Source: Mobula hypostoma
Lineage: Eukaryota
Reading direction: 5' to 3'
Assembly: GCF_963921235.1 (NCBI RefSeq)
Contig: NC_086097.1
Span: 248,001 to 312,000 of the forward strand
Length of the DNA: 64,000 bases
Shown here: positions 236 to 59,262 of the stretch, in pieces
Position numbering within the stretch: the first letter of the stretch is position 1
How the letters are laid out: each line of letters opens with the position of its first letter
Notes under the pieces: model-generated
What the model saw: only the letters and a program-made list of their open reading frames with translations
What the model was told of the DNA's origin: nothing
The model's database searches: none
Position numbers and translations under genes: made by a program

Positions 236-1029
236 TTCAGGCCCACCATTCAGGGCCCCAAACCGTCCTTCCAGGTGAGGCATCACTTCACCTGTGAGTC
301 GACTGGGGTGATATGCTGCGTCCGGTGCTCCCGATGTGGCCTTTTGTATGTTGGTGGGACCTGACGCAGACTGGGAGACCGCTTTGCTGGGCATCTGTGT
401 TCTGTCCACCAGAGAGGGCAGGATCTCCCAGTGGCCACACATTTTGGTTCCACATCCCATTCCCATTCTGACATGTCTGTCCACGGCCTCCTCTACTGTA
501 GAGATGAAGCCACACTCAGGTTGGAGGAACAACACCTTATATTCCGTATGGGTAGCCTCCAACCTGATGGCATGAACATTGACTTCTCTGGCTTCCGCTG
601 GGCCCCACCTCCCCCTCGTACCCCATCTGTTACTCTTTTTTATGCACACATTCTTTCTCTCACCCTCCTTTTTCTCCCTCTGTCCCTCTGAGTATACCTC
701 TTGCCCATCCTCTGGGTCACCCCCCCCCCGTCTTTCTTCCCGGACCTCCTGTCCCATGATCCTCTCGTATCCCCTTCTGCCTATCACCTGTCCAGCTCTC
801 GGCTCCATCCCTCCCCCTCCTGTCTTCTCCTATCATTTTGCATCTCCCCCTCCCCCTCCAGCTTTCAAATCCCTTACTCACTCTTCCTTCAGTTAGTCCT
901 GACGAAGGGTCTCGGCCTGAAACGTCGACTGTGCCTCTTCCTATAGATGCTGCCTGGTCTGCTGCGTTCACCAGCAACTTTGATGTGTGTTGCTTGAATT
1001 TCCAGCATCTGCAGAATTCCTGTTGTTTG
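236..1029 (+). mobile_element. Penelope-like element, 5'-truncated: GIY-YIG endonuclease remnant plus 3' (pLTR) region, inserted into a CR1
   Basis: Encodes HFTCESTGVICCVRCSRCGLLYVG... (GIY-YIG region with frameshifts). Perfect 15-bp TSD caaagtagttattca at 221-235 and 1030-1044. Near-identical to 32261-33010 on the opposite strand. Confidence 0.88.
894..931 (+). ncRNA. Minimal type I hammerhead ribozyme motif in the PLE 3' region, core intact
   Basis: tagtc CTGACGA agggtctcggcct GAAA cg TC gactg: helix I agtc/gact, conserved CUGAnGA and GAAA boxes, short helix II, palindromic ACGU in place of helix III, predicted cleavage after GUC (926). Confidence 0.75.
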
Positions 1030-1384
1030 CAAAGTAGTTATTCAATTGGTCTACCATGTCCTTGTTCCCCATGATCAATTCACCTGTTTCTGACTGTAAG
1101 GGACCTACATTTGTCTTAACCAATCTTTTTCTTTTCACATATCTATAAAAGTTTTTACAATCAGTTTTTATGTACCCTGCCAGCTTTCTCTCATAATCTT
1201 TTTTCCCTTTCCTAATTAAGCCCTTTGTCCTCCTCTGCTGGACTCTGAATTTCTCCCCATGCTCAGGTGTGCCGCTTTTTCTGGCTAATTTGTATGTTTC
1301 TTCTTTGGAATTGATACTGTCCCTAATTTCCCTTGTCAGCCACGGTTTCATAGGAATGCTCTACCTTCGGATAGCGGGGGATAC

Positions 1385-2055
1385 CTGTATAGGACCCTGG
1401 TCAGACCCCACTTGGAGTACTGCGCTCAGTACTGGTTACCTCACTACAGGAAGGATGTGGAAGCCATAGAAAGGGTGCAGAGGAGATTTACAAGGATGTT
1501 GCCTGGATTGGGGAGCATGCCTTATGAGAATAGGTTAAGTGGACTTGGCCTTTTCTCCTTGGAGCGACGGAGGATGAGAGGTGACCGAATAGAGGTATAT
1601 AAGATGATGAGAGGCATTGATCGTGTGGATAGTCAGAGGTTTTTCGCCAGGGCTGAAATGGCACAGTTTTAACGAGTTAGTGAGTCTTGACGAAGGGTCT
1701 CGGCCTGAAACGTCGACTGTACCTCTTCCTAGAGATGCTGCCTGGCCTGCTGCGTTCACCAGTAACTTTGATGTGTGTGGCACAGTTTTAAGGTGCTTGG
1801 AAGTAGGTACAGAGGAGATGTCAGAGGTAAGTTTTTACGCAGAAAGTGGTGAGTGTGTGGAATGGGCTGCCGACGATGGTAGTGGAGGCATATACGGTAG
1901 CGTCTTTTAAGAGTCTCTTAAATAGGTACATGGTGCTTAGAAATATAGAGGGCTATGGGTAACCCTAGGTAATTTCTAAAGAAAGTACATGTTTGCCACA
2001 GCATTGTGGGCTACAAGGTCTGTATTGTGTTGTGGGTTTTCTATGTTTCTATGTC
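1385..2055 (+). mobile_element. CR1 LINE 3' end (ORF2 C-terminus, 3'UTR, tctatgtt tail)
   Basis: [33 protein letters not shown] motif; ends tttctatgtttctatg. Confidence 0.9.
1673..1777 (+). mobile_element. 105-nt stand-alone PLE 3' module with hammerhead motif (core C3 changed to U)
   Basis: agtc TTGACGA agggtctcggcct GAAA cgtc gact; perfect 14-bp TSD tggcacagttttaa at 1659-1672 and 1778-1791. Confidence 0.85.
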
Positions 2056-4015
2056 ATGTGGCACAGGCAGTAATCCCAAGATTACTATCTCTGAGGTCCT
2101 GCTTTTCAACTTCCTTCCTAACTCCCTGTATTCTGTTTTTAGGTCCTTATCCCTTTTCCTACCAATATGTACCACGACCTCTGGCTGTTCACCTTCCCAC
2201 TTCAGGGTATCGTGGACTCACCTTGATGCAACCTTAGTGCAACCTTGATGCAACCTTGGCTGATAAAGGAAGTCAAAACCAACATAAAAGCAAAAGAGAG
2301 GGCACATAACAGAGCAAAATTAGTGGGAAGTTAAGAGGACTGGGATACTTCTAAAAACCAACAGAAGGCAACTAAAAAAGCCATAAGGAGAGAAAAGATG
2401 AAATATGAAGGTAAGGTAGCCAATAATATCATAGAGGACACCAAGAGTTTTTTCAGTATATAAAGTGCAAAAGAGAGGCTGGAGCAAATATCAGATCACT
2501 GGAAAATTATGCTGGAGAGGTAGCAACGGAGGACAAACAAGTATTTACTGTGGAAGACACTAGCAGTGTGCTGGGTGGTCAAGAGTGTCAGAGGGCAGAG
2601 GTGAGTGAAGTTGTTACAAGGGAGAAGGTGCTTGGGAAGCTGGAAGGTCTGAAGATAGATACAGTTGCAAGAAAACATTTGTGGACCCTTTACAATTGCC
2701 TGGTTTTCTGTATTAATTATTCATAAAATGAGGTCTGATCGTCATCTAAGTCACAATAATAGACAAACACAATCTGCCTAAACTAAAAACACAAACAATT
2801 GTACTTCTCGTCAATACAATATACACCATTCAAACAATCACAGCAACACACACAGAATGCTGGAGGAGCTCAGCAGGCCAGACAGCACCTTGGGAAAAAA
2901 GTACAGTCGACGTTTTGGGCCAAAATCAATCACAGTCTAGGTTTAAATAAAGTACGTGAGCCTCTTGGGTAATGCCTTCTACAAAAGCTATTTGGAGTCG
3001 GGTGTTCCAATCAATGAGATGAGATTGGAAGTGTGGGTCATAGAGGTGCCCTGCTGTATAAAAAAAAGACACACAAAGTCAGGTTACTGACAAAGCTTGC
3101 TCTTCTCAAGAGATATCTGTTTGTGTGCACCATGCCTCGACCAAAACAACTTTCAGAGGACTCTAGAAGAAGAATTATAGAGATGCATGTCGCTGGAAAA
3201 AGGCTAAAATAGCCTTTCTAAAAATCTGAGTGTTCATCAGTCCACAGTAAGGTCAATGGAGGAAACTCAGTACTGTTGCTGCTCTCCCAAGGAATGGGTG
3301 TCCTTCAAAGATCACACCAAGAGCACAACACAACATGCAATGTTGAAGGAGGTGAAAAAGAACCCAAGGATAACAGCAAAAGACCTGTGGATATCTCTGG
3401 AACTTGCTGGTCTCTGTTCATGCGTTCACTGTAAGAAAAACACTGAACAAGAATGGTGTTCATGGAAGGACACTACAGAGGAAACCACTGCTCTCCCAAA
3501 AAACTTTGCTATACATCTCAAGTTTGCAAAAGACCACCTGAACATTCCAAACGCTTGAGACAATGTTCTGCGGACAGATGTACATCATAAGTTGAACTTT
3601 TTGGCAGAAATGCACACTGCTATGTTTGGAAAAAAAAAAGGGCACTGCACACCAACACCAAAAATTTCATCCCAACTGTGAAGCATGGTGGAAGGAGCAT
3701 CATGGTTTGGGGCTGTTTTGCTGCCTCCGGACCTGGACAGCTTGCAATCGTTGAGGGAACAATGAATTCAAATTGTATCAAGACATTTTTACAGCAGAAT
3801 GTCGGGGGAGCAGTCCATCACCTGAAGCTTAATAAAAGTTGCATTGTGCAATAAGACAATGATCTGAAACACAAAATTAAATCAACAGAATGGTTTAAAA
3901 AGAAAAAAATTCAAATTTTGGAATGGCCAAAAAGAAAGTCCAGAGCTTGACCCAATTGAGATGCTGTGGAGGGCATCTCAGGAGGGCTGTTTGTGCAAGG
4001 TATCCCAGAAATATT

Positions 4016-6530
4016 ACATAGAAACATAGCAACGAAGGGTTCCGGCCGGAAACGTTGACTGATAGTTTCCACGGATGCTGCTCGACCTGCTGAGTTCCTC
4101 CAGCGTGTTGTGAGTGTTGCTTTGACCCCAGCATCTGCAGAGAATTTTGTGTTTACATAGAAACATAGAAAACCTACAGCACAATCCAGGCCCTTTGGCC
4201 CATAAAGCTGTGCTGAACATGTAGAAATTACCTAGGGTTACCCATAGCCCTCTATTTTTTTAAGCTCCATGTACCTATCCAGGAGTTTCTTAAAAGACCC
4301 CACCTTATCTGCTTCCATCACCGTCGCCAGCAGCCCATTCCATGAACTCACCACTCTCTGCAGAAAAAACTTGCCCTGACATCTCCTCTGTACCTACGTC
4401 CAAGCATCTTAAAACTGTGCCCTCTCATATTAGCCATTTCAGCCCTGGGGAAAAGCCTCTGATTATCCACACGATCAATGCCTCTCATCATCTTATACAC
4501 CTCTGTCATGTCACCTCTCATCCTCCGCTGCTCCAAGGAGAAAAGACTGAGTTCACTCAACCTGTTCTCATAAGGCATGCTCCCCAATCCAAGCAACATC
4601 CTTGTAAATCTCCTCTGCTCCCTTTTCTATCGTTTCCACATCCTTCCTGTAGTGAGGCAACCAGAACTGAGCACAGTAGTCCAAGTGGGGCCTGACCAGG
4701 TTTTATCTAGCTGCAACATTACCTCTTGGCTCCTAAACTCAATCCCACGATTGATGAAGGCCAATGCACCGTTTGCCTTCTTAACTACAGAGTCAACCTG
4801 CGCAGCAGCTTTGAGTGCCCTATGAACTTGGACCCCAAGATCCCTCTGAATCTCCACACTGCCAAGACTTTTACCATTAGCACTATATTCTGCCATCATA
4901 TTTGACCTACCAAAATGAACCACTTCACACTTATCTGGGTTGAACTCCAACTGCCACTTCTCAGCCCAATTTTGCATCCTATCGATGTCCTATAACCTCT
5001 GACAGCCCTCCACACTATCCACAACACCCCCATCCTTTGTGTCATCAGCAAATTTACTAACCCATCCCTCCACTTCCTCATCCAGGTCATACACACCACT
5101 GATTATCGACCTTCATGCAGAAAATGACTCGTCTACAACAGTGGTCCCCGACCATTGGGCCGCGTGGAAACGATATGATTCGGCGATATGAAACGATATG
5201 TGTCAGCTGCACCTTTCCTTATTCCCTGTCATGCACTGTTGAACTTGAACCCCCCCCCCCCCCGTCGGCTGGTCTGCAAGAATATCGTCAATATTAAACT
5301 GGTCCGTGATGCGCAAAGGACCCCTGGTCTACAACCACTCTTTGCCTTCTGTGGGCAAGCTAGATCTGGATCCACGAACAATGTCCCCTTGGATCCTATG
5401 CCTCCTTACTTTCTCAATAAGCCTTGCATGGGATACCTTATCAAATGCCTTGCTGAAATCCATATACACTACATCTACTGCTCTACCTTCATTGATGTGT
5501 TTGGTCACATCCTCAAAGACTTCGGTCAAGCACATAAGGCATGACCTGCCTTTGACGAAGCCATGCTGACTATTCCTAATCATATTAGGCCTCTCCAAAT
5601 GTTCATAAATCCTGCCTCTTTGAATCTTTTCCATCAACTGACCAACCACTGAAGTAAGACTCACTGGTCTATAACTTCCTGGGCTGTCTCTACTCCCTTT
5701 CTTGAACATCCGCAACCCTCCAATCCTCCGGAACCTCTCCTGTCCCCATTGATGATGCAAAGATCATTGCCAGAGGCTCAGCAACCTCCTCCCTCATCTC
5801 CCACAGTAGCCTGGGGTACATCTCAACTGGTCCTGGTAACTTATCCAACTTGATGCTTTCCAAAAGCTCCTGCACATCCTCTTTCTTAATATCTATATGG
5901 TCAAGTTTTTCAGTCCACTGTAAGTCATCCCTACAATTGCCAAGATCCTTCTCCATAGTCAATACTGAAGCAAAGTATTTATTAAGTATCTCCGCATTCT
6001 CCTCTGGCTCCATACACACTTTTCCACTGTCATATTTGATTGGTCCTATTTTCTCATGTTTTATCCTCTTGCTCTTCGCATGCTTGTAGAATGACTTGGG
6101 GTATTCCTTAATCCTGTCCGCCAAAGCCTTCTCATGGCCCCTTCTGGCTCTCCTAATTTAATTCTTAAATTCCTTCCTGCTAGCCTTATAATCCTCGAGA
6201 TCTTTATCATTACCTAGTTTTTGAACCTTTCGTAAGCTCTTCTTTTCTTCTTGACTAGATTTACAACAGCCTTTGTACACCATGGTTCCTGTACCCTTCC
6301 ATCCTTTCCCTGTCTCATTGGAACGTACCTATGCAGAACTCCATGTAAATATACCCTGAACTTTTGCCACATTTCGCTCGTACATTTCCCTGAGAACATC
6401 TGTTTACAATTTATGCTTCCAAGTTCCTGCTTGATAGCCTTATATTTCCCCTTACTACAATTAAACACTTTCCTGACTTGTCTGTTCCTATCCCCCTCCA
6501 AAGCTACGGTAAAGGAGATAGAATTGTGAT
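4016..6530 (-). mobile_element. CR1 LINE, 5'-truncated and degenerate, nested in the Tc1
   Basis: Minus-strand ORFs with YRPVSLTSVVG, QHGFVKGRSC, DFSKAFDKV and WQLEFNPDKC; catagaaa tail at the left end. Confidence 0.92.
5139..5326. mobile_element. hAT (Charlie-like) MITE, 188 bp
   Basis: Termini cagtggtcc / ggacccctg; perfect 8-bp TSD gtctacaa at 5131-5138 and 5327-5334. Confidence 0.85.
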
Positions 6531-7925: not shown

Positions 7926-8432
7926 CAAGGGGTGATTGATAAGTTCATGGCCTAAGGTAGAAGGACTCAATTTTTAAAAACCTAGCACATTTATTTTTCA
8001 GCGTAGTCCCCTCCTACATTTACACACTTAATCCAGCGGTCGTGGAGCATACGGATCCCTTCTTTGTAGAAGTCGGTGTCTTGGACCTCCAGAAGTGGTC
8101 CACAGCAGGTGTGATTGATAAGTTCGTAGCCTAAGGAAGAAGGAGATGAGTTATTAACTTCACACTTTCTGCATAAGTTGAACTGCACATGCATGTAACG
8201 AGAGCTGTATAACTCGTCTCCTTCTACCTTAATCACAAACTAATCAATCACCCTTGCTGTGGACCACTTTCTGGAGGTCCAAGATGCCGACTTATACAAA
8301 GAAGGGATCTGTATGCTCCACGACCGCTGGACTAAGTGTGTAAATGTAGGAGGGGACTATTGAAAAATAAATGTGCTTGGTTTCCTAAAATTGACTCCTA
8401 CCTTAAGTCACAAACTTATCAATCACCCCTCG
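7926..8432. mobile_element. Mariner-derived palindromic MITE with an internal second TIR pair
   Basis: TIRs c(a/g)aggggtgattgataagtt / aacttatcaatcacccctcg at a TA site (left copy reads TG). The mariner C-terminus EGIRMLHDRWIKCVNVGGDY is present on both strands. Confidence 0.85.
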
Positions 8433-11400
8433 TATATTCTGCCATCATATTTGATCTACCAAAATGAACCACCTCACTGCCACTTCTGGGTTGAACTCCA
8501 TCTGCTACTTCTCAGCCTGGTTTTGCATCCTGTCAATGTCCCTCTGTACCCTCTGACGGCCCTCCACATTATCCACAACACTCCCAACCTTTGTGTCATC
8601 AACCAAATTTACTAACCCATCCCTCCACTTCATCATCCAGGTCATTTATAAAAATCACGAAGAGAAGGGGTCTGAGAACAGGGCCCAGAACAGATCCCTG
8701 AGGCACACCACTGGTCACTGACCTCCATGCAGAATATGACCTGTCTACAACCACTCTTTGTCTTCTGTGAGCAAGCCAATTCTGGATCCACAAAGCAATG
8801 TCCCCTTGGATCCCATGCCTCCTTCCTTTCTCAATAAGTCTTGCATGGGGTACTTTATCAAATACCCTGCTGAAATTCATATACATTACATCTACTACTC
8901 CACCTTCATCAATATGTTTAGTCATGTCACATTCTCAAAAAATTTAATCAGGCTTGTAAGGCACTACCTGCCTTTGTCAAAGCCATGCTGACTATTCCTA
9001 ATCGTATTATGCCTCTCCAAATGTTCATAAATCCTGCCTCTCAGGATCTTTTCTAACAACTTATCAACCACTGAAGTAAGACTCACTGGTCTATAATTTC
9101 CTTGGCTATCTCTACTCCTTTTCTTGAATAAGGGAACAACATCTGCAACCCTCCAATCCTCCGGAACCTCTCCCATCCCCATTGATGATGCAATCTCATC
9201 CCTCACCTACCATAGTAGCCTGGGGTACATCTCATCCGGTCCTGGAGACTTAGCCAACTTGATGCTTTCCAAGTCTACCTTATTACATTTACTGCGTGCA
9301 GTCAAGTATAGCGCCTTCCGTCCTGTATTCACCATTTTGATTTTGCTCCTGTTACACTTTAAGCCATCCCAGAGACTGCAATTTTGCCCTAACATCTGTC
9401 TGTCCTCCCTCACGGTCTTACTACACACTGCATAGACCTGTATACCAACTACACTATCCTTCGCCCTATCACTCAGTTTCCCATCCCCCTGCCAAATTAA
9501 ACCCTCCCCAACAGCTCTTAACAAACCTGCCTGCAAGAATGTAGGTTCCCCTCGATGTTTCAGCCTGAAATGTCAACTGTACTTTCTTTCCATAGATGTT
9601 GCCTGGCCTGCTGAGTTCCTCCAGCAATTTGTGCATTTTGCTCAGATTTGCAGCATCTGCAGATTTTCTCTTGTTTGTAGATGGAATACAATGTCAGGAA
9701 GTTTATGGTCATGCACTTTGGAAAAAGAAGTGAAACGGTTGACTATTTTCTAAATGGAGAGAAAATACAAAAAACTGAGGCGTAGAGGGACTTGTGAGTC
9801 CTTGTGCAGAATTTCCTAAAGGTTAATTTTCAGGTTGAATCTGTGATGAGTAAGGCACATGAGAAGTTAGCATTAATTTCAAGAGGACTTTAATATAAAA
9901 GCAAGGATGTAATGTAGAGGGTTGATAAAGCACTGTGAGGTCTCACTTGGAGTATTTTGTGAGCAGTTTTGGGCCCCATATCTTAGAAAGGATGTGCTGA
10001 TACTGGTGAGGGTTCAAAGGAGTTCACGAAAATGATTCCAGGATTGAATGGCTTGTCATATGAAGATTGTTTGATGGTTCTGAGTCCATATTTACAAGAA
10101 TTCAGATAAAGGAGGGGTGACTTAATTGAAAACCAACAAAAGGCAACTAAAAAAAACATTGACAAGGTAAAGATGGAATGCAAAAGTCCACTAGCCAGTA
10201 ATATTAAAGATGCTACCAAGCATTTCTTAAGATACATGAAGCGTAAAGGAGAGATGAGAGTGGATATCTGACCATTGGAAAACAATGCTGGAGTGGTAAT
10301 AATGGAGACAAGGAAATGATGGATGAACTGAATAAGTATTTTGCATCAGTCTTCACTGTGGAAGACAATAGCAGTATGGTCAAAGTTCCAGTTGTGAGAG
10401 GTCATGAAGTGTGTGAAGTCACCATTACTAGGGAGAAAGCTTTTAGGAAACTCAAAGGTCTGAAGGTACAAAAGTCACTTGGACCAGATAATGTACAGCC
10501 CAGGGTTCAGAAAGAGGTAGCTGATGAGACTGTGGGGGCATTAGTAATGATTTTTCAAGAATCGCTGGATTCTGGAATGGTTCTGGAAGACTGGAAAATT
10601 GCAAATTTCACACCATTCTTCAAGAACGGAGAGAGGCAGAAGAAAGGAAATTATAGCCTAATTAGACTGAACTGAGTGGTTGGGAAGACGCAGGAGTCGA
10701 TTATTAAGGATGTGGCTTTAGGCGGTAGTTAGTATGGTTTCCTCAAGGAGAGAAAATCTTGCCTGACAAATCTGTTGGACTTAATAACAAGCAGGATAAC
10801 AAAGGAGAATCAGTTGATGTTGTGTACTTGGATTTTCAGAAGGCCTTTGACAAGGTGCCACATATGATGCTGCTTAACAAGGTACGAGCCCATTGTATTA
10901 CAGGAGAGATTCTAGCATAGAGCATAGAACATAGAATAGTACAGCACCGTACAGGCCCTTCGGCCCACAATGTTGTGCTGACCCTCAAACCCTGCCTCCC
11001 ATATAAGCCCCCACCTTAAATTCCTCCATATACCTGTCTAGTAGTCTCTTAAACTTCACTAGTGTATCTACCTCCACCACTGACTCAGGCAGTGCATTCC
11101 ACGCACCAACCACTCTCTGAGTAAAAAACCTTCCTCTAATATCCCCCTTGAACTTCCCACCCCTTACCTTAAAGCCATGTCCTCTTGTATTGAGCAGTGG
11201 TGCCCTGGGGAAGAGGCGCTGGCTATCCACTCTATCTATTCCTCTTATTATCTTGTACACCTCTATCATGTCTCCTCTCATCCTCCTTCTCTCCAAAGAG
11301 TAAAGCCCTAGCTCCCTTAATCTCTGGCTATTTTACAGATTCAGTCTGTAGTGAGGAAGGCAAATGCAGTGTTAGCATTAATTTCAAGAGGATTAGAATA

Positions 11401-13410: not shown

Positions 13411-13414
13411 TGGA

Positions 13415-20139: not shown

Positions 20140-20480
20140 ATAAACAAAAGAAAATCTACAAACACTTGAAATCCAAGCAACGTACATAAAATGCTGGAGG
20201 AATTCAACAGGCCAGGCAGCATTTGTGGAAAAGAGTAACAGTCGACTTCATCAGGACTGGAAAAAAAGATGAGAAGTCAGAGTTAGAATGTGCTGGTAGG
20301 GGAAAAGAAGTACCACGTGGTAGGTGGTAGCTGAAACTGGGAGTGGGGGAGGGCTGATGTAAAGAGCTAGGAAGTTGACTGGTGAAAGAAATAAAGGGCT
20401 GGAGAGGGTGGTAAACCATGGAAGAAGGGGAAGGAGCACCAGAGGGAGGTGGTGGGCAGGGAAGGACATAAGGTGAGAAA
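20140..20480 (-). mobile_element. PLE 3' region, hammerhead motif with internal deletion
   Basis: Reverse complement reads ccagtc ctgatga ag tc gactgt, so helix II and the GAAA box are missing, followed by the shared gctgcctggcctg...ccagcatttt module. Confidence 0.75.
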
Positions 20481-20494
20481 GGGATATCAGAGAT

Positions 20495-38800: not shown

Positions 38801-40094
38801 GCCAGTCCTGCCTCTCCTGTAGCCAAGTTTCACTAATTACTATAACGTCATAATTCCACATGTCAATCCACGCCCTCAACTCATCCGCCTTCCCCGCAAT
38901 ACTCCTAGCATTGAAATATATACACCTCAGAAGATTTTTACCACCACTCACAACCTTTCTATTAGCGGATTTGCTTGAACTTTTAACATCATTTATTTTC
39001 ACCCCAGCCACACTGTCAGCTCTGGCACTCTGGTTCCCATCCCCCTGCAAATCTAGTTTAAAGCCTCCCCAATAGCATTAACAAACCTCCCTGAAAGGAT
39101 ATTGGTCCCCCTGTAGTTCAAGTGTAACCCGTCTCTCTTGTACAGGTCCCACCTGCCCCAGAAGAGGTCCCAATTATCCTGAAATCTGAAATCCTGCCCC
39201 CTGCACCAGTTCCTCAGCCACTTGTTCATCCTCCAGAGCATCCTATTCCTACCCTCACTGGCAAGTATCACAGCTTGTAAACACTTTTTTTAATCAGCTA
39301 AGAGTCTTTCAATTTTTGTTTGGGGGATTTTCACCCATTCTTCCTAGCAAAAGGCTTCTAGCTCTATGAGATTCTTGGGCCATCTTGCATATACTGCTCT
39401 TTTGAGGTCTATCCACAGATTCTCGATGATGTTTAGGTCAGGGGACTGTGAGGGCCATGGCAAAACCTTCTGCTTGCACCTCTTGAGGTAATCCATTGTG
39501 GATTTTGAGGTGTGTTTAGGTTCATTATCCTGTTGTAGAAGCCATCCTCTTTTCATCTTTGGCTTTTTTACAGATGGTGTGATGTTTGCTTCCAGAATTT
39601 GCTGGTATTTAATTTAATTCATTCTTCCCTCTAACAGTAAATGTTTCCTGTGCAACACAAGCCCAAAGCATGATCGATCCACTCCCGTGCTTAACAGTTG
39701 GAAAGGGGTTCTTTTCATGAAATTCTGCACCCTTTTTTCTCCAAACATACCTTTGCTCATTGAGGCCAAAAAGTTCTATTCAAAAGGTTCAAAGGAACAT
39801 CTAAACAAGCCTGATGCATTTTGGAAACAAGTGTTGTGGACTGATGAAGTTAAAATAGAACTTTTTGGCCGCAATGAGCAACGGTATGTGCCCAAACTTT
39901 TGCTTTGGGCCCTTTTCCTTTTTTGTTATTTTGAAATTGTAAAAGATGGAAATAAAAAAGTTTTCTTTCTTAAAATATTAAAGAAATGTGTCATCTTTAA
40001 CTTTATGCCTTTTGGAAATCAGTTCATCTTTTACTCAGCTATTCACAGTAACAGAAATTTTGATCAGGGGTGCACAAACTTTGGCATGCCACTG
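35839..40094 (-). mobile_element. Tc1-family element with ~190-bp inverted repeats (35839-36027 and 39889-40094), split by a 3.2-kb CR1 and internally rearranged
   Basis: Minus strand QQDNEPKHTSK and WPSQSPDLNIIENLW; plus strand FWKQVLWTDEVKIELFG. The inverted repeats match by eye. Confidence 0.85.
36054..39262 (-). mobile_element. Young CR1 LINE with near-intact ORF2 (APE 37998-39050, RT 36227-38008) and the end of ORF1
   Basis: ORFs of 350 and 593 aa separated by a frameshift. Motifs [38 protein letters not shown]. The catalytic FADD motif reads FPDD. Confidence 0.95.
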
Positions 40095-41097
40095 AGAATT
40101 AATGCTGTTTTAAAGGCAAAGTTTTGTCACGCCAAATATTGATTTGATTTAGTTTTTTTTACTGTTTACTGCTCTTCATAGTTTTTTAATATTTAGAAAC
40201 ATTTCATTTAATTATTCTTGAAAGCATCTTTGCTTTACAGAATTTTTTTGCATGTGCATGAGACTTTTGTACATTTCTGTGTGAGGAGCATTTGATGGCT
40301 CTGGGCCTGTATTCACTAGAGTTTAAAAGGATGAGGGAGGAGCTCATTGAAATCTATCAAATATTGAAAGGCCTAGGTAGAATGGATATGGAGAGGATGT
40401 TTCCTATAGTGGGTAAGTCTAATAGCAGAGGGCACAACCTTAGAATAGAAGGATATCCATTTAGAACTGGGATGAGGAGGAATTCATTGCCATAGATGTC
40501 TATGAAGGCCAAGTCATTGGGTATATTTAAAACAAATATTTGGAGTTTTTTGATTAGTCAGGGCAACAGATGTATGGGGAGAAGGCAGATTAATGGGGTT
40601 GAGAGGGAAAATAAATCAGCCATAATGGAATGTTGGAGCAGGCTCGATGGACTGACTGGCAGAATTCTGCTCCAAAATCTTATGGTCTAATGCAGAATAA
40701 ATTGTGTCAATTGCAGAGTAAGTGTTGCTAAACAATAAGATGCAAAATCATAACTTGGTAGAATGTGAGATTAAGAGACCGCCCCCCCCCCAACTCATTT
40801 TATAGGTTGTGTATATGAGTGCTGACATAACGTCACAAATAGAAAATTCAACAAGATGCTGGGAAGGTACCCAGGCAATGCACAGGTCTCTGTGCAACAC
40901 AGAGAATGATTTCATATATGTAATAAACAGAAGTTAACAAATAATAGAAAAAAACTACATTAAACAAAAACTGAAGATCTTGATTGTGTATTGAAAGAAT
41001 AGATTTATCAGCGACAGAGTGAACATATACTGCTTAACAGTATGCTGATCATGAGCAAAGCAAAGATCTTTCATGGCAAACTGAAAATTGAATGTAA

Positions 41098-41555: not shown

Positions 41556-41746
41556 TACAAACATGAGAAAATTTGCAGATGCTGGAAATCCAAAGCAATA
41601 CAAATAAAATGCTGGAGGAAGTCAGCTGCCCTGGTAGCATCTATGGAAAAGTTTAAACAGTCGACTTTTCAGGTCAAGACCCTTCACATTAGGTACAGTT
41701 CTGATGAAGGGTCTTGGCCCAAATAGTCGACTGTTTACTCTTTCCC
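41556..41746. repeat. Divergent pair of PLE hammerhead modules
   Basis: Minus copy ~41556-41690 and plus copy ~41696-41746 (cagtt CTGATGA agggtcttggccc aaat agtc gactg). TSD atgtataagct at 41544-41554 and 41747-41757. Confidence 0.78.
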
Positions 41747-42708: not shown

Positions 42709-43679
42709 GTAAGTTTCTCACTGATTATATTTTAATATCTTGTTTCAATATGTTGGTGTCATTGGAAAAATTCAGATTATGCCAAGGTATATATCCAAAC
42801 AAACATTTTTTGTGAAATGGGCCCGTTGGGGCATCCAAATGCCTTCTTTACTCCCTCATCCAATTGTCTTGCCACTTTCAGCAAGCTATGGACTTGCAAC
42901 CTAATGTCTCTCTTCACTTGAGGCTCCTTGACATCCATTCACTTGCTTTATGTGTCATCCAGAATTGCACTTCCCAAAGTACATTACGGTACATTTGTCA
43001 TGATGAAGTTCCATTTGCCACTACTGTACTTAACCTTATAACTAATCCATGTCCTGCAGTATTCAAAAAGAATATTGTTTGTTGTGTACAACTCTAGTAA
43101 TTTTCTTGTTGTGTATAAATTTACTCAACATCTAGCACAAAAAAAACTGCTAGTGTAACTCAGCAAGTCAGGCAGTATCTATGCAGGGAAATAGACAGTT
43201 GATGATTCAGGAAGACTCTTCATCTGAACGGGTATTCAAATGATAGATATATTAAATAATAGGTGTATTAGGTACGGAGGAGATGTCGGGGTAAGTTTTT
43301 TATGCAGAGAGTTGTGTGTGTGTGGAATGGGCTGCCAGCGACGGTGCTGGAGGCGGATATGACAGGGTCTTTTAAGAGACTCCTGGATAGGTACATGGAG
43401 CTCAGTAAAATAGATGGCTATGGGTAACTCTACGTAATTTCTTGGGTAAGGACATGTTCGGCACAGCTTTGTGGACCGAAGGGCCTGTACTGTGCTGTAG
43501 GTTTTCTTTGTTTCTATGTCTGTTTGGTTCCACCTAACCTGTTTTGTAAGCATAAGACATAGGAGCAGGATTAGACCATTCGGCCCATTGAGTCTGCTCC
43601 ACTATTCCATCGTGGTGATGTATTATCCCTCTCAACCCCATTCTCCTGTCTTCTCACCGTAACCTTTCATGCCCTGACT

Positions 43680-45345
43680 CAGTGAATACTTCTCTTTGTT
43701 ATTTACCAATGAGAGGGAACTTGATGACGGTGAGGACAATATGAGTGAGGTTGATGTTCTGGAGCATGTTGATATTAAGGGAGAGGAGGTGTTAGAGTTC
43801 TTAAAATACATTAGGATGGATAAGTCCCCAGGGCCTGACGGAATATTCCCCAGGCTGCTCCACGAGGCGAGGGAAGAGATTGCTGAGCCTCTGGCTAGGA
43901 TCTTTATGTCCTCGTTGTCCACGGGAATGGTACCGAAGGATTGGAGGGAGGTGAATGTTGTCCCCTTGTTCAAAAAAGGTAGTAGGGATAGTCTGGGTAA
44001 TTATAGACCAGTGAGCCTTACGTCTGTGGTGGGAAAGCTGTTGGAAAAGATTCTTAGAGATAGGATCTCTGGGCATTTAGAGAATCATGGTCTGAGCAGG
44101 GACAGTCAGCATGGCTTTGTGAAGGGCAGATCGTGTCTAACAAGCCTGATAGAGTTCTTTGAGGAGATGACCAGGCATATAGATGAGGGTAGCGCAGTGG
44201 ATGTGATCTATATGGATTTTAGTAAGGCATTTGACAAGGTTCCACACGGTAGGCTTATTCAGGGATCCAGGGAAGTTTGGCCAGGTGGATTCAGAATTGG
44301 CTTACCTGTAGAAGGCAGAGGATCGTGGTGGAGGGAGTACATTCGGATGGGAGGGTTGTGACTACTCGTGTCCCACAAGGATCAGTTCTGGGACCTCTAC
44401 TTTTAGTGATTTTTATTAACGACCTGGATGTTGGTGTCGAAGGGTGGGTTAGCAAGTTTGCAGACGACACAAAGGTTGGTGGTGTTGTGGGTAGTGTAGA
44501 GGATAGTCGAAGATTGCAGAGAGACATTGATAGGGTGCAGAAGTGGGCTGAGAAGTGGCAGATGGAGTTCAACCTGGAGAAATGTGAGGTGATATACTTT
44601 GGAAGGACAAACTCCAAGGCAGAGTACAAAGTAAACGGCAGGATACTTGGTAGTGTGGAGGAGCAGAGGGACCTGGGGGTGCATGTCCACAGATCCCTGA
44701 AAGTTGCCTCACAGGTGGATAGAGTAGTTAAGAAAGCTTATGGGGTGTTAGCTTTCATAAGTCAAGGGATAGTGTTTAAGAGTCGCGAGGTAATGATGCA
44801 GCTCTATAAATCTCTGGTTAGACTGCACTTGTAGTACTGTGTCCAGTTCTGGTCGCCTCACTATAGGAAGGATGTGGAAGCATTGGAAAGGGCACAGAGG
44901 AGATTTACTAGGATGCTGCCTGGTTTAGAGAGTATGGATTATGATCTGAGATTAAGGGAGCTGGGGCTTTGCTCTTTGGAGGGAAGGTGGATGAAAGGAG
45001 ACATGATAGAGGTATACAAGATATTAAGGGGAATCAATAGTGTGGATAGCCAGCACCTCTTCCCCAGGGCACCACTGCTCAATACAAGAGGACATGGCTT
45101 TAAGGTAAGGGGTGGGAAGTTCAAGGGGGATATTAGAGGAAGGTTTTTTACTCAGAGAGTGGTTGGTGCGTGGAATGCATTGCCTGAGTCAGTGGTGGAG
45201 GCAGATACACTAGTGAAATTTAAGAGACTGCTAGACAGGTATATGGAAGAATTTAAGGTGGGGGCTTATGTGGGAGGCAGGGTTTGAGGGTCGGCACAAC
45301 ATTGTGGGCCGAAGGGCCTGTACTGTGCTGTACTATTCTATGTTC
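43680..45345 (+). mobile_element. Young CR1, RT through 3'UTR
   Basis: Three successive RT ORFs (43696, 44277, 44874); tail tattctatgttct; same subfamily as 56361-58810 and 10915-11325. Confidence 0.93.
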
Positions 45346-45349
45346 TGTG

Positions 45350-48430: not shown

Positions 48431-48431
48431 T

Positions 48432-51400
48432 GTTCAAAATTCAGAAGTTCAAAGTAAATGTTTTTATCAGAGTGCATACATGTCACCACATACAACCCTG
48501 AGATTCTTTTTCCCATGGACAAACTTGCAAATCTATAGAACAGTATCTGTAAACAGGATCAATGAACAACAATCTGTAAATGAAAATATTAAAAAAGAGC
48601 AATGAATAACAAGAATGAAATGACAAGATGAAGAGTTTTCAAAGTTAGACCATCGGTTGTGAGAACACCAGAAATAGGATGAATGTAGTTATCACCTTTA
48701 GTTCAAGAGCCTGATGGTTGAGGCGTTGTTAGAAAAATAGAGGAGCTATGGGTGACCTTAGGTAATTTCTAAGTAAGTACATGTTCAGCACGGCATTGTG
48801 GCTGAAAGGCCTGTATTGTGCTGTAGGGTTTCTATGTTTCTATGTAGTAACTGCTCTTGAACTTGGTGGTGTGAGTCCTGAAGCACTTGCACCTTCTATC
48901 TGGTGGCAGCAGCGAGAAAAGAGCATGAACTGGGTGGTGAGGATCTTTGATGATGGATGCTGCTTTTCTACAGCAACGTTTCATGTAGATGTACTCAATG
49001 GTTGGGAGGGCTTTATCCATGAGGTACTGGGCTGAATCCGCAACCTTTTGTAGGATTTTACGCTAAGGCATTGGTGTTTCTATACCAGGATGAAATGTAG
49101 CCAGTCAGCACACTTTCCACAGATCTATATAGGTTTGCCAAGGTTTTTGATGACATGCCGAATCTCTGCAGACTCTTGAGGAAGTAGAGGCGCTGTCATG
49201 CTTTCTTTGAAACTATATTTATATGATCAGTTCAGGACAGGCCCTCTGAGTAAGACCATAAAACAAAGGAGCAGAAGTCGGTCATTCGGCCCATCGAGTC
49301 TGCCACGTCATTTTATCATGAGCTGATCCATTCTCCCATTTAGTCCTACTCCCCCACCTTCTCACCATAACCTTTGATGCCCTGGCTACTCAGATACCTA
49401 TCAATCTCTGCCTTAAATACACCCAATGACTTGGCCTCCACTGCCGCCCGTGGCAAAAAATTCCACAGATTCACCACCCTCTGGCTAAAAAAATTTCTTC
49501 GCATTTCTGTTCTGAATGGGCGCCCTTCAATCCTTAAGTCATGCCCTCTCGTACTAGACTCCCCCATCATGGGAAACAACTTTGCCACATCCACTCTGTC
49601 CATGCCTTTCAACATTCGAAATGTTTCTATGAGGACTCCCCTCATTCTTCTAAACTCCAAGGAATACAGTCCAAGAGCAGACAAACGTTCCTCATATGTT
49701 AACCCTCTCATTCCCGGAATCATTCCAGTGAATCTTCTCTGTACCCTCTCCAACGTCAGCACATCCTTTCTTAAATAAGGAGACCAAAACTGCCCACAGT
49801 ACTCCAAGTGAGGTCTCACCAGCACCTTATAGAGCCTCAACATCACATCCCTGCTCCTATACTCTATTCCTCTAGAAATGAATGCCAACATTGTATTCGC
49901 CTTCTTCACCACCGACTCATCCTGGAGGTTAACCTTAAGGGTATCCTGTACGAGGATTCCCAAGTCCCGTTGCATCCCCATTTAAATAATAGTCTGCCCG
50001 TTTATTTCTTCTGCCAAAGTGCATAATCGTACACTTTCCAACATTGTATTTCATTTGTCACTTCTTTGCTCATTCTTCCAATCTATCCAAGTCTCTCTGC
50101 AGGTTTCCTGTTTCCTCAGCACTACCGGCCCCTCCACCTATCTTCGTATCATCAGCAAACTTAGCCACAAAGCTATCTATTCCGTAATCCAAATCGTTGA
50201 TGTACAATGTAAAAAGAAGCGGCCCCAACACAGACCCCTGTGGAACACCACTGGTAACCGGCAGCCAACCAGAATAGGATCCCTTTATTCCCACTCTCTG
50301 TTTCCTGCCAATCAGCCAACACTCTATCCATGTATGTAACTTTCCCGTAATTCCATGGGCTCTTATCTTGTTAAGTAGCCTCATGTGTGGCACCTTGTCA
50401 AAGGCCTTCCGAAAATCCAAATATACAACATCCACTGCATCTCCCTTGTCTAGCCTACTTGTAATTTCCTCAAAAAATTGTAATAGGTTTGTCAAGCAGG
50501 ATTTTCCTTTAAGGAATCCATGCTGAGTTCTGCCTATCTTGTTATATGCCTCCAGGTACTCTGTAACCTCATCCTTGACAATCGACTCCAACAACTTCCC
50601 AACCACCGATGTCAAGCTAACAGGTCTATAATTTGCTTTTTGCTTCCTTGCCCCCTTCTTAAATAGCGGAGTGACATTTGCAATCTTCCAGTCCTCCGGA
50701 ACCATGCCAGAATCTATCGACTGTTGAAAGACCATCGCTAATGCCTCCGCAATCTCCACAGCTACTTCCTTCAGAACACGAGGGTGCATTCCATCTGGTC
50801 CAGGAGATTTATCTACCTTTAGACTATTCAGCTTCCTGAGTAATTTCTCTGTTGTAATTGTGACTGCACACACTTCTCTTCCCTGCCACCCTTGAGTATA
50901 CTGCTGATGTCTTCCTCAGTGAAGACTGATGCAAAATACTCGTTCTGGCTCATGGACCTGTCGTTTCCCCCTCCTGAAGTCCACAATCAGTTCCCTGATC
51001 TTATTGACATTGAGAGATTGTTGTTATTACACCACTCAGCTAAATTTTCAATCTCCCTCCTCTATGCAGATTCATCATCACCTTTGATATGGCTCACAAC
51101 AGTAGTATCATCAGCAAACTTGTAAAGTATATGGTGTTGAAGCTGTACTTAACCACATAGTCATAGGTGTAAAGCGAGTGGAGCAGAGGGCAAAGCGCAT
51201 ATTCCTGTGATGCTCCTGTGCTGATAGAGATTGTGGAGAAGACGTTTTTACCAATCCGAACTGACTGGCATATGCAAGAGAGGAAATCCAGGATCCAATT
51301 ACAGAAGGGGGTCTTGAGGTCCAGGCCTTTGGTTTACTGATTAGTTTTGAGGGATGATTATAGTAAATGCTGAGCTGTAAATGGTAAAGAGCATCCTGAT

Positions 51401-52941: not shown

Positions 52942-53105
52942 GTAAGTATAAATCATCCATAAATCTGATGAAGTGCATGATAAATATGCCACATGGGGTT
53001 TTTACCACACAAAAAAATAGTTTTTGCTTGATATCTTTTAACCGAGCAGAAGATCGAAAGTCAATGGATTTTACTTTTCATCCCATCAGCCAACACATTG
53101 AGCAT

Positions 53106-53290
53106 CAAACAAGAGAAAATCTGCTGATGCTGGAAATCTAAGCAACACACACAAAAAGCTGGAGGAATTCAGCAGGTCAGGCAGCATCTACGGAAAAAGT
53201 CCTGCCAAAGGGTCTCGGCTTGAAACATCAACTGTTTTCCATAGATGCTGCCTGGCCTGCTGAGTTCCTCCAGCATTTTGTGTGTGTTGC
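53106..53290. repeat. Fold-back PLE module: ~56-bp inverted arms enclosing a degenerate hammerhead
   Basis: Arms 53142-53197 and 53235-53290; loop agtc ctgccaa agggtctcggctt gaaa catc aactg. Confidence 0.82.
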
Positions 53291-53334
53291 AATGCATTCA
53301 GCATATCAATTTTCATAATTTACACCAGCTACAA

Positions 53335-53515
53335 TGTGATCCCATCACCTCTCCACGGCTCCCTGGTCTGTTCATCCCTCTCTATACCCTGGCACTTTTC
53401 CTTCAATGGTAGCAGGTGCTATATCTGTCCCTGCACTTCCTCCCTCACCACCATCCAGGATCCTAAACTGCCCTTCCAGGAGACACAGAGATTCACACGC
53501 ATCCCCTCTGACCTT
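53335..53515 (+). mobile_element. Old PLE remnant (region preceding the GIY-YIG motif)
   Basis: SRCYICPCTSSLTTIQDPKLPFQETQRFT matches NKCYTCPYTSSLTTIQGPKQSFQLRQHFT in ORF 32755-33399. Confidence 0.7.
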
Positions 53516-54081
53516 GTTGCTTATTGGTTGTTTTTTCATTGTTATTGTCACATATACAGTGGAAAGTGTTTGAGTTTCATCCGGACAGATCATGCCATAC
53601 TTGAGTCTTAAGAATATAGTGTAACAGAGAAAGTACAATGTGTGTAAACAAATTACATGAGATTAGCTGGATATGTGAAGGACTTTGACAAAGTATTGCA
53701 CATGAGGCTGCTAAGTAAGTTGAGCTCAAGGCAAGATGCTCAAATGGATGGAAGACTTGCTGTCTGGCAGGAAGTAGAGAATGGGGATAAAGATGTTCTT
53801 TTTAGGATTGGTGCCTGGGCTCGGTGATGGGATCACAGTTTTTCATGTTACACGTTAGTGATCTGAACGACAGAACTGAAGGCATTGTGGTCAAGTTTAG
53901 TTGATTGGAGTACTGTGTAGACACAACAGGAGTGTTCCTATGCACGTCCAACAAAAAGCTTGAAAAAGTAGTAAGTTTTTAAATGGTACTTGTTGATTGG
54001 AGTACTACGCAGATGTAACAGCAGCATTCCCACGGAGGTCCGACAAGGAGCATTTAAAAACCCAGTTTCCATAAAAGAGAG

Positions 54082-55030: not shown

Positions 55031-56190
55031 GAGAGGTACCGCCTGCTGGAGTGGTCATCGTGGGAACAGTTGTCGTCGGAGCAGTCTTGAGTCAGAGTAG
55101 TAATACTTTGGCTCAGTTTGGCTGTAGCGAGAACAGGCTTTGGCAAGGCAAGTTCATTCCTTAATTCTTATTTAACTAGAGAGAATGGAAGTATATCTGC
55201 AGAGCTGGTGTTCTGTTCTGGGTGTCAGGCAAAGGATTTCCTGGAGACTCCCAGCCTCCCCAGTGGCCACATCTGCGCCAGTTGCATCAAGATGCAGTTC
55301 CTTAGAGACTGCATTAGGGAAATGAAGCTGCATTTTGATGACCTTCAGCTTGTTAGGGAAGGTGAAGCAGTGATAGACAGGAGCTGCAGGGAGATAGTCA
55401 CCCCAAGGCACAGGAGACAGATAAATGGGTGACTGTCAGGAGAGGGAAGGGAGAACATCAGATGGTGGAGAGCACCCCTGAGGCCATGCCCCTCAACAAA
55501 AGTACTCTATTTTGAATACTGTTATGGAGGGGACAACCTGCCTGGGGGACACAACAGCGGGCGTGCCTCTGGCACTGAGTCTGGCCCTGTGGCTCAGAAG
55601 GGTAGGGAACTGAAGGAGATGGCAGCAATAATAGGGGACTATAGAGGATACACAGGCAATTCTGTGGACGTGAAAAGGAAACGTGGATTGTACACAAAAT
55701 GCTGGAGGAACTTAGCAGGCCAAGAAGCATCAAGCTAATATGGCAGGGGTTTGGGAACAAGTGTGATAGAGCTGAGGCTGAGCCAGTAAGTTTACAATTA
55801 GATGATGAGTGTAACAGGCTGCATCACTGCCTGGTATGTCTTCACAGGACTGAAAGAAGCTGCAGAGGGTTGTAAATATAGTCGGCTCCAGCATGGGTAC
55901 CAGCCTACAAAGTACCCAGAACAGCTTCAAGGAGCGGTGTCTCAGAAAGGCAGCGTCCATTATTAAGGACCTCCAGCACCCAGGACATGCCCTTTTCTCA
56001 CTGTTACCATCAGATAGGAGATGCAGAAGCCTGAACGCACACACTCAGCGATTCAGGAACAGCTTCTTCCCCTCTGCCATCCGATTCCTAAATGGACATT
56101 GAACCCATGAACACTACCTCACTTTTTTAATATATATTATTTCTGGTTTTCGCATGATTTTTAATAAATTCATATACGTATACTGTAATT

Positions 56191-58853
56191 AAGTAGAAGA
56201 AAGCCCTTAACTCCAAGTGGAGTCATCGGGACGCTGTCATGATGGCGTTTTTTCAGCAGGCTTTCTTATTTTTATGAGGCCGAGTTGCCAGCTCGATGTT
56301 CAACCCAGCACGGATGGAAAGCGTGCAAGGGAGCCAGCTGGTTTCGAACTTGGGAGCCTTCATAGAACATAAAACATAGAATAGTACAGCACAGTACAGG
56401 CCCTTCGGCCCACAATATTGTGCCGACCCTCAAACCCTGCCTCCCATATAACCACCCACCTTAAATTCCTCCATATACCTGTCTAGTGGTCTCTTAGATT
56501 TCATGAGTGTATCTGCCTCCACCACTGACTCAGGCAGTGCATTCCACGCACCAACCACTCTCTGAGTAAAAAACCTTCCTCTAATATCCCCCTTGAACTT
56601 CCCACCCCTTACCTTAAAGCCATGTCCTCTTGTATTGAGCAGCGGTGCCCTGGGGAAGAGGCGCTGGCTATCCACTCTATCTATTACTCTTATTATCTTG
56701 TACACCTCTATCATGTCTCCTCTCATCCTCCTTCTCTCTCCGAAGAGTAAAGCCCCAGCTCCCTTAATCTCTGATCTTAATGCATACTCTCTAAACCAGG
56801 CAGCATCCTGGTAAATCTCCTCTGTACCCTTTCCAATGCTTCTACATCCTTCCTATAGTGAGGCGACCAGAACTGGATACAGTACTCCAAGTGTGGCCGA
56901 ACCAGAGTTTTATAGAGCTGCATCATTACCTCGCGACTCTTAAACTCTATCCCTCGACTTAGGAAAACTAATACCCCTTAAGCTTTCTTAACACCCCTAT
57001 CTACCTGTGAGACAACTTTCAGGGATCTGTGGACATGTACCCCCAGATCCTTCTGCTCCTCGACACTACGAAGTATCCTGCCATTTACTTTGTACTCTGC
57101 CTTGGAGTTTGTCCTTCTAAAGTGTACCACCTCACACTTCTCCGGGTTGAATCCATCTGCCATTTCTCAGCCCACTTCTGCATCCTATCAATGTCTCTCT
57201 GCAATCTTTGACAATTCTCTACACTATCCACAACACCACCAACCTTTGTGTCGTTTGCAAACTTGCCAACCCACCCTTCTACCCCCACATCCAGGTCGTT
57301 AATAAAAATTACGAAAAGTAGGGTCCCTGATCCTTGTGGGACACCACTAGTCACAATCCTCCAATTCGAATGTACTCCTTCCACCGCGACCCTCTGCCTT
57401 CTGCAGGCAAGCCAATTCTGAATCCACCTGGACAAACTTCCCTGGATCCCATGCCTTCTGACTTTTTGAATAAGTCTACCATGTGGAACCTTGTCAAATG
57501 CCTTACTAAAATCCATATAGATCACATCCACTGCACTACCATCATCTAGATGCCTGGTCACCTCCTCAAAGAACTCTATCAGGTTTGTTAGACATGATCT
57601 GCCCTTCACAAAGCCATGCTGACTGTCCCTGATCAGACCATGATTCTCTAAATGCCCATAGATCCTATCTCCAAGAATCTTTTCCAACAGCTTTCCCACC
57701 ACAGACGTAAGGCTCACTGGTCTATAATTACCCGGACTATCACTACTACCTTTTTTGAACAAGGGGACAACGTTCGCCTCCCTCCAATCGTCCGGTACCA
57801 TTCCCTTGGACAACGAGGACAAAAAGATCCTCGCCAGAGGCTCAGCAATCTCTTCCCTCGCCTCGTGGAGCAGCCTGGGGAATATTCCATCAGGCCCAGG
57901 GGACTTATCCGTCCTAATGTATTTTATCAACTCAAACACCTCCTCTCCCTTTATATCAACATGCTCCAGAGCATTAACCTCACTCATATTGTCCTCACCA
58001 TCATCAAGTTCCCTCTCATTGGTGAATACCGAAGAGAAGTATTCATTGAGGATCTCGCTTACTTCCACAGCCTCCAGGCACATCTTCCCACCTTTATCTC
58101 TAATCGGTCCTACCTTCACTCCTGTCATCCTTTTGTTCTTCACATAATTGAAGAATGCCTTGGGGTTTTCCTTTACCTTACTCGCCAAGGCCTTCTCATG
58201 CCCTCTTCTTGCTCTCCTCAGCCCCTTCTTAAGCTCCTTTCTTGCTACCCTATATTCCTCAATAGACCCATCTGATCCTTGCTTCCTAAACCTCATGTAT
58301 GCTGCCTTCTTCCACCTGACTAGATTTTCCAACTCACTCTTCACCGGGACAAATTTATCCCTAACATCCTGCAAGAGATCCCTAAACATTGACCACATGT
58401 CCATAATACATTTCCCTGCAAAAACATCATCCCAATTCACACCTGCAAGTTCTAGCCTTATAGCGTCATAATTTGCCCTTCCCCAATTAAAAATTTTCCT
58501 GTCCTCTTTGATTCTGTCCTTTTCCATGATAATGCTAAAGGCCAGGGTCACTGTCCCCCAGATGCTCACCCACTGAGAGATCTGTGACCTGACCCGGTAC
58601 GTTACCTAATACTAGATCTAGTATGGCATTCCCCCTAGTCGGCCTGTCAACGTACTGTGACAGGAATCTGTCCTGGACATACTTAACAAACTCTGCCCCT
58701 TCCAAACCCTTGGAACTAATCAGGTGCCACTCAATATTAGGGAAGTTAAAGTCACCCATGATAACAACCCTGTTATTTCCAAAATCTGCCTCCCAATCTG
58801 CTCCTCGGTATCTCCGAAGTCCGGCGCTGATGCTACTGCGCCACCAACTGGCT
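56191..58853 (-). mobile_element. tRNA-derived SINE of ~215 nt in two pieces (58811-58853 and 56191-56360), split by a CR1
   Basis: Box A tggcgcagtag and box B gttcgaaac on the minus strand; ctt-rich tail; 13-bp TSD gtatactgtaatt at 56178-56190 and 58854-58866. Confidence 0.8.
56361..58810 (-). mobile_element. Young CR1, APE C-terminus through 3'UTR
   Basis: 494-aa ORF 57085-58569 with CR1 RT motifs; catagaa tail at 56361. Confidence 0.94.
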
Positions 58854-59262
58854 GTATACTGTAATTGATTTACATATTTTTTTCTTCTATATTATGTATT
58901 GCATTGAACTACTGCTGCTGCTAAGTTAACACATTTCACAACACATGCCGATGATAATAAACCTGATTCTGATCTGGAATGAATGTCGGAAGGGTCTTGG
59001 CCCAAGACATCTGCTGTAGTTTTTTCCATAGATGCTGACTGGCCTGCTGAGTTCCTCCAGCATTTTGTGTGTGTTGCTTGGATTTCCAGCATTTGCAGAT
59101 TTTCTCTTGTTCGTGAAGGAAACACGGATGGCAGTTTGCCTCCCAGGTGCCAGAGTCTGAAATATTTCTGGACGCATTCACAGTATTCTGAAAAGAGAGG
59201 GTGAGCAGCCAAAAGTTGTGGTACATAATGGTACCAATGACATAGGAGGAAAAAAGGAGAAG

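Follow-up and report, generated by a model that had tools for sequence, protein, structure and literature searches.

Short hammerhead-bearing modules in 64 kb of Mobula hypostoma DNA: probable minimal insertions of Penelope-like retrotransposons

A 64,000 nt stretch of Mobula hypostoma DNA (RefSeq assembly GCF_963921235.1, contig NC_086097.1, positions 248,001 to 312,000, forward strand; hereafter the window, numbered from its first letter) contains many copies of a short module that forms the 3' end of a Penelope-like element (PLE) and carries a motif resembling, by sequence, a minimal hammerhead ribozyme. An earlier note on this DNA had placed the module at 14 loci and derived it from the pseudo-long terminal repeat (pLTR) ends of PLEs. 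Here we describe the copies, their parent element and insertion anatomy, and the distribution of their 5' ends around the predicted ribozyme cut site.

Occurrence of the module

All counts are confined to the window. An nhmmer profile built from 13 arms (single module copies in one orientation) returned 26 rows, of which we kept those at E <= 1.5e-5 and dropped 9 at E 0.47-9.4; this recovered 17 arms across 14 loci, approximately one locus per 4.6 kb. The reversed window gave no profile match, and a non-circular search with a single sequence recovered 16 of the 17 arms. Every previously reported locus is present in the position and strand given, and the module consensus proposed then agrees with that from our arm alignment, which also bears out the existence of at least three sequence variants (A, B and C). 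Three features had been missed: target-site duplications (TSDs), two classes of 3' end, and the status of the copy at 20142 as a longer one with an untranslated region (UTR) of ~250 nt. Neither UTR nor open reading frame (ORF) is found at 11 of the 14 loci. The features are as follows, with starts (in nt) counted from the predicted cut.

236-1029 (+): 5'-truncated PLE copy, variant A, with GIY-YIG end, pyrimidine-rich 3' UTR, intact hammerhead and tail (tblastn to shark PLE proteins)
221-235 and 1030-1044: exact 15-bp TSD of the 236-1029 copy
894-931 (+): putative minimal type I hammerhead, the sole intact one, cut predicted after C926 (sequence, pair probabilities)
994-1029 (+): optional 36-nt PLE tail, the gap between the two 3' end classes (near +67 and +103)
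1673-1777 (+): short tailless variant A copy, C3U change in the core, within a LINE-like (long interspersed element) stretch; exact 14-bp TSD at 1659-1672 and 1778-1791
2844-2923 (-): short variant B copy starting in helix II (-13), no tail; 12-bp TSD with one mismatch
4030-4152 (+): short variant C copy starting in the core (-25), with tail; exact 16-bp duplication, partly ambiguous as it sits in a short repeat tract
9555-9677 (+): short variant B copy with tail, start -18, no TSD found (profile match)
20142-20490 (-): longer variant B copy with ~250 nt of UTR, helix II deleted from the hammerhead, with tail; upstream end approximate
27385-27482 (-): short tailless variant B copy, core CUGCCGA, start -31, no TSD found (profile match)
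32261-33558 (-): longest PLE copy, variant A, with reverse transcriptase (RT) thumb, CX4CxxC linker, GIY-YIG and UTR, helix I mismatch, no tail
33564-33978 (+): 5'-inverted RT core piece of the same insertion, ~33 bp junction duplication (tblastn, self-blast)
34885-35039: head-to-head pair, variant C, tail on the plus arm and none on the minus arm, 6-nt microhomology junction
41558-41746: head-to-head pair, variant B, tail on the minus arm, plus arm reduced to the hammerhead, 10-nt spacer
43137-43226 (-): old diverged short copy, start -26, no TSD found (E 7e-9)
53106-53290: head-to-head pair, variant B, tail on the minus arm and none on the plus arm, which starts at helix I; in an older PLE ORF remnant
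55691-55733 (-): fragment lying only downstream of the cut site (E 1.7e-8)
58988-59112 (+): short variant B copy starting in the core (-23), with tail, no TSD found (profile match)

Parent element

In two copies the module lies ~300 nt 3' of a GIY-YIG ORF, which bears out its origin as a PLE pLTR end. In both, the arm forms the 3' end of a longer element, at 236-1029 (+) and 32261-33558 (-), and the two elements are 91.5% identical over 760 nt (self-blast). The second, here called the 32 kb copy, encodes the RT thumb, a CX4CxxC linker and a GIY-YIG domain in a partial and broken ORF, its Pfam GIY-YIG match (E 6e-4) falling below the cut-off. Among 54 protein matches the closest are from Rhincodon typus (64%) and Chiloscyllium punctatum (54%), and the next-best are RT plus GIY-YIG proteins at 39-50% over most of the query. 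Taken by themselves, these matches point to a cartilaginous fish as the probable host. The inverted RT core piece at 33564-33978 is part of the same insertion (tblastn, self-blast); RT core and thumb-to-GIY-YIG segment, at 39-64% to RT plus GIY-YIG proteins, together give the order of RT and then C-terminal GIY-YIG that marks endonuclease-containing (EN+) PLEs. A CX2-5CxxC motif in the RT-endonuclease linker is described as a Neptune feature, a zinc-finger-like linker being ascribed to Nematis too (PMC8557442), and the CX4CxxC of the 32 kb copy has this form. The element is thus an EN+ PLE, probably of Neptune type to judge by its linker.

The whole UTR is pyrimidine-rich (75-82%), as are the ~250 nt of UTR in the third longer copy, at 20142, which belongs to variant B and aligns with the variant A UTR through short colinear matches, each weak alone. 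The short 1673 copy is 92-93% identical to the ORF-bearing copies. In a close relative the family is very abundant, as 170,888 contigs of a public sequencing run (X1) align to 201-1100. An older, decayed PLE ORF remnant at approximately 53070-53518 (+) is split by the inverted module at 53106-53290, and its flanks translate to adjacent PLE peptide. At the 5' inversion of the 32 kb copy (33526-33564, 33945-33978) ~33 bp are duplicated at the junction, a twin-priming-like arrangement, and the other end of the inverted piece adjoins a different LINE-type ORF fragment.

The abundance of short copies had been read, as one of two options, as a distinct non-autonomous family. In explicit form this would be a dedicated family resembling short interspersed elements (SINEs) or retrozymes, ~110-140 nt long, transcribed from short masters and mobilised in trans by PLE protein. 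The many loci without UTR or ORF and their density would suit it, as would variant C, which has no long copy in the window; pLTR sequences are also reported to be able to act in trans, and retrozymes to derive from pLTRs. Yet the 5' end is not fixed (starts range from -36 to +19), long copies occur alongside short ones within both variants A and B, no tRNA-type head was found, and the window contains no tandem units, the module being in none of its 5 tandem arrays. Non-LTR retrozymes (PMC7229834; bioRxiv 10.64898/2026.07.22.740005) are similar in being non-coding, hammerhead-bearing and pLTR-related, and are reported in one chondrichthyan, but by definition they form tandem repeats in which the ribozymes are complete (two or more complete hammerheads in tandem), whereas the copies here are dispersed monomers or inverted pairs with TSDs, in which 16 of 17 motifs are broken and one is intact. 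The chondrichthyan retrozyme families of the bioRxiv report may include this family. A dedicated non-autonomous family is in our judgement improbable.

Insertion anatomy

TSDs of 12-16 bp flank 7 of the 14 loci (three exact, of 14-16 bp, three with one mismatch and one with three) and are 64-86% AT; among random flank pairs an exact 14-bp match arose in 2 of 3000. At the other seven loci, the 32 kb copy among them, no TSD was found. All three head-to-head pairs lie within a single 14-bp duplication, with one mismatch at 34885, one at 41558 and three (11 of 14 matching) at 53106, and each pair is therefore one insertion event; an inverted 5'-truncated arm under one TSD, a trait of EN+ PLEs, is thus present at 3 of 14 loci. 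The 3' ends fall near +67 in 8 arms (two of them ragged), near +103 in 8 arms and at ~+20 in one. The 36-nt difference between the two classes is the PLE tail, within the 30-40 bp of the optional tail of such elements, and two of the three inverted pairs carry a tail on one arm only.

Tail, inverted arm and TSD are all described for PLE insertions (PMC8557442, PMC3846280). The complex insertions of EN+ PLEs (Arkhipova et al. 2013, PMC3846280; Craig et al. 2021, PMC8557442) share with ours the head-to-head arms under one TSD, the tail on one arm, the insertion into older PLE copies and the microhomology junctions; they differ in TSD length (8-10 bp in rotifer PLEs against 12-16 bp here) and in that most units here are only 80-190 bp. 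The Poseidon element PAc of Anolis (Frangieh et al. 2024, PMC11167929) is a further parallel. Its tail is tied to two internal RT start sites, which corresponds to our two 3' end sites past the hammerhead; its protein is reported to nick and extend on both strands at AT-rich sites, and AT-rich targets are seen here too; and in vitro its unprocessed RNA was the main template, with cleavage assisted by protein. Use of uncleaved RNA would be another likeness, which for the ray element we infer. Unlike PAc, the present element has a Neptune-type Cys linker and no ORF start identified in the motif.

Short duplications of motif sequence occur at two 5' junctions (1673-1690 (+) and 27476-27484 (-)), suggesting RT slippage or re-priming where the complementary DNA (cDNA) ended.

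Hammerhead motif

At 894-931 the motif comprises CUGAnGA at 899-905 (CUGACGA), one extra A, helix II (907-910 with 915-918), GAAA at 919-922, A-CG-U at 922-925, C17 as C926, after which the cut is predicted, and helix I (894-898 with 927-931). It accords with the minimal type I architecture put forward before, with helix III reduced to the palindromic A-CG-U. The ordered boxes CUGAnGA, GAAA and UH, together with helices I and II, are found in one of the 17 arms, that at 894, and in the alignment consensus; the other 16 arms have core changes, CpG-type decay, deletions or a start within the motif, so that the description of most cores as damaged or truncated holds. One qualification concerns a CUGCC core (A6C) common to the copies at 27476 and 53198 (27465-27475 (-) and 53198-53208 (+)), both of which carry other damage: this core is possibly a subfamily variant rather than decay, and in one phage hammerhead A6C is reported to leave a low, still detectable activity. 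None of the difference rows listed for the family contigs (40 of 117) is at a core position.

The descriptor-type search proposed in the earlier note, made in the window with a strict core pattern, did give an excess (8 matches against 2.0 +/- 1.5 by chance), but one that is weak alone, as module copies make up 2 of the 8. Rfam gave no hammerhead match at E <= 5 in the window; five weak Rfam microRNA matches, two of them on inverted pairs, were rejected as hairpin artefacts. The motif pattern had no match in viral contigs or prokaryote genomes, and its sole match in metagenomes (L001), without similarity to the window or to PLE protein, was put down to chance; these scans therefore provided no outside homologues for covariation analysis.

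In folding calculations on the 894 monomer, helices I and II reach pair probabilities of 0.74-0.97. The lowest-energy monomer fold pairs the core (901-904) with the CGUC segment (923-926), an inactive form that would block the active one, and a self-inhibited fold is therefore possible in this model. An unconstrained fold of two copies did not yield the active dimer, and the fold of 885-1030 is no more stable than shuffles (z -0.03). Minimal PLE hammerheads are reported to be inactive as monomers and weakly active as dimers, and to occur mostly singly, sometimes in close opposite-strand pairs (PMC4209133). The present motif shares with the metazoan examples in that report the core boxes, the extra nucleotide between 9 and 10.1, the short helix I, the palindromic 15.2-16.2 region and the mostly single occurrence tied to truncated PLEs, with close opposite-strand pairs; it differs in its helix II of 4-5 bp, against 7-8 bp in schistosome motifs, and in the G-U that variant A copies have at 10.1-11.1 instead of G-C. 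The accessible text of that report makes no mention of cartilaginous fish and does not treat the position of 5' ends relative to the motif. To work in the parent element, the hammerhead probably has to dimerise or be assisted by protein, and almost all of the dispersed copies are dead.

A polypyrimidine tract and CAG abut helix I in variants A and B, at 873-896 (+) and ~20258-20285 (-).

Position of 5' ends

Relative to the predicted cut, 11 short arms start at -36, -32, -32, -31, -26, -25, -23, -23, -18, -13 and -8; three further arms start at approximately +10 to +19, and three copies extend ~250, 690 and 1200 nt or more. No arm starts at the cut site. Seven of the 11 clustered starts lie inside the motif, and the other four fall at its upstream edge, at -31 to -36, a spread that suits an RT stall as well as a template end. 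Seven of them are bounded by a TSD or an inverted arm, and the flanks of the remaining four are not pyrimidine-rich UTR. Stops within the next 42 nt account for 11 of the 14 arms that reach the cut, where a constant rate would give 21% (p 8e-6), and a comparison of unequal windows, 42 nt above and 28 nt below the cut, gives p 0.003. Detection is unlikely to account for the scarcity of downstream starts at 40 nt, where 36-39 of 40 simulated fragments from below the cut were recovered (18-36 of 40 at 30 nt). The start zone is common to the two 3' classes, and where the cDNA stops therefore depends more on position than on its length; all three copies that pass -42 continue for 200-1200 nt.

Simple random truncation, the other option previously offered, fits these data poorly, with 11 of 14 short arms beginning in a 29-nt zone upstream of the cut site. 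It would mean ordinary heavy 5' truncation in which the hammerhead has no special role and the clustering comes from short cDNAs and small numbers. PLEs are known for strong 5' truncation, the starts are spread over those 29 nt, and the equal-width test given below is not significant. But if the stop rate fell smoothly, starts downstream of the cut should be more numerous than the 3 of 16 seen, given that fragments of that kind can be detected; the start zone is shared by arms that end at +67 and arms that end at +103; and all copies reaching beyond -42 run on. We consider ordinary truncation unlikely.

The tract next to helix I raises another alternative, in which spliced PLE RNA is the template, an intron acceptor abuts helix I, and the apparent 5' end is an exon junction or short first exon. 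In Penelope of D. virilis the intron is reported to end at the 5' end of helix I, having begun 46 bp past the transcription start, and four arms here start at -31 to -36. Set against this, pyrimidine richness extends over the whole UTR and the AG is also needed for helix I, the short copies have no upstream exon in common, none of the 15 contig joints listed, out of 314, ends there, and seven starts lie inside the motif. A spliced template seems to us very improbable as the explanation, and it is compatible with the reading that we prefer.

That reading, which we hold with reasonable confidence, is that the modules are minimal insertions by autonomous EN+ (Neptune-type) PLEs, from short cDNAs of uncleaved RNA that end at the ribozyme, and not a separate family. 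The module is the end of a PLE body, has TSDs of 12-16 bp, 3' classes 36 nt apart and inverted arms from single events, and reads through the cut site. By analogy with the anole PLE, the RT-GIY-YIG protein would nick AT-rich DNA, cDNA would begin at either of two internal sites, ~67 and ~103 nt past the hammerhead cut, and priming on both strands would give the head-to-head pairs. The template would be uncleaved PLE RNA, because copies run through the cut site. Most cDNAs would then end within the next 8-36 nt, either where the template begins or where a folded or protein-bound ribozyme stalls RT, and a minority would read through to leave the UTR- and ORF-bearing copies.

This conclusion must be tempered by several observations. 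The sample is small and comes from a single window, which contains no full-length element or tandem pLTR, and a TSD is lacking at 4 of the 11 clustered starts. If rates differ between copies, the constant-rate test makes the result look more significant than it is, and with equal 28-nt windows on either side of the cut the contrast (3/16 against 7/14) is not significant (p 0.12). The profile in the detection simulation included the source copy, and at 15% divergence only 18 of 40 fragments of 30 nt were found. Contig depth is 3.4 times (X1) and 6.4 times (a second run, X9) higher on the module than on the UTR, depth not being copy number; the top loose end of the contigs, at 895, runs on into pyrimidine-rich sequence of other subfamilies, whose own UTRs therefore explain part of the excess. 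Finally, covariation in the motif across 12 arms, in which 85% of 80 cells are paired, does not exceed that of shuffles (the score is reached by 30 of 500); the three two-sided changes are all in helix I, whose 5' columns include non-homologous flank, and helix II has one-sided changes only.

An A-to-G-changed copy

Comparison of 243-993 (+) with the 32 kb copy gives 21 G/A against 4 A/G differences (p 0.0009; C/T 12, T/C 8). Among 16 repeat pairs compared in the window, this one shows the strongest asymmetry. At 16 of those sites at least 80% of X1 family contig depth reads A, and confirmed A-to-G changes outnumber T-to-C by 16 to 4 (p 0.0002 given base counts), both among the 40 of 117 difference rows listed. 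The copy thus has 16-20 sense-strand A-to-G changes, mostly at 301-600. Of the 20 candidate sites, 18 follow U or A and two follow G, with none of 52 CA sites changed (p 4e-7); since a new CG could decay back, we also left CA out, which gives p 0.003. ADAR prefers a 5' U or A neighbour. Among 18 invariant residues checked, three differ in the 236-1029 copy, all by A-to-G and with loss of endonuclease residues, and this copy is therefore the derived one. To judge by its sequence, this single copy is probably an ADAR-hyperedited RNA template fixed in genomic DNA. We found no matching report of inherited ADAR-edited retrotransposon or PLE copies in the literature searched, where coverage of subscription journals was thin and absence is weak evidence.

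Neighbouring sequence

LINE fragments, which we take to be CR1-like, lie at 36227-39077 (-), 43678-45287 (+), 50070-50915 (-) and 57085-58605 (-), and several modules are inserted within them; the first has Pfam matches to RT and AP endonuclease. Remnants resembling Tc1/mariner transposase were seen by eye at ~3050-3990 (+) and 39618-40142 (+), the latter without a Pfam match. Self-complementary stretches at 7928-8430 and ~22308-22392 are unrelated to the module.

Implications

The module itself is of a known kind, in element class, motif and insertion shapes, and is a new lineage example; what goes beyond routine is the clustering of 5' ends and the A-to-G copy. The role of the hammerhead in PLEs is unsettled in the field (PMC8557442), and many short TSD-bounded copies are a natural readout of the positions around the ribozyme at which RT starts and stops. 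The lack of any copy beginning at the cut site speaks against the short copies having been templated by cleaved linear RNA. A bolder picture, which we offer tentatively as somewhat less likely than its opposite, is that the hammerhead marks the template's physical limit, that most insertions are programmed strong-stop cDNAs of uncleaved RNA, leaving a short unit every 5 kb with about one fifth fold-backs, and that double-stranded RNA from the inverted loci is hyperedited by ADAR, reverse transcribed and inherited. If the A-to-G copy was indeed edited by ADAR, editing removed three invariant endonuclease residues here, and genomes would hold a searchable record of germ-line RNA editing on retrotransposon RNA.

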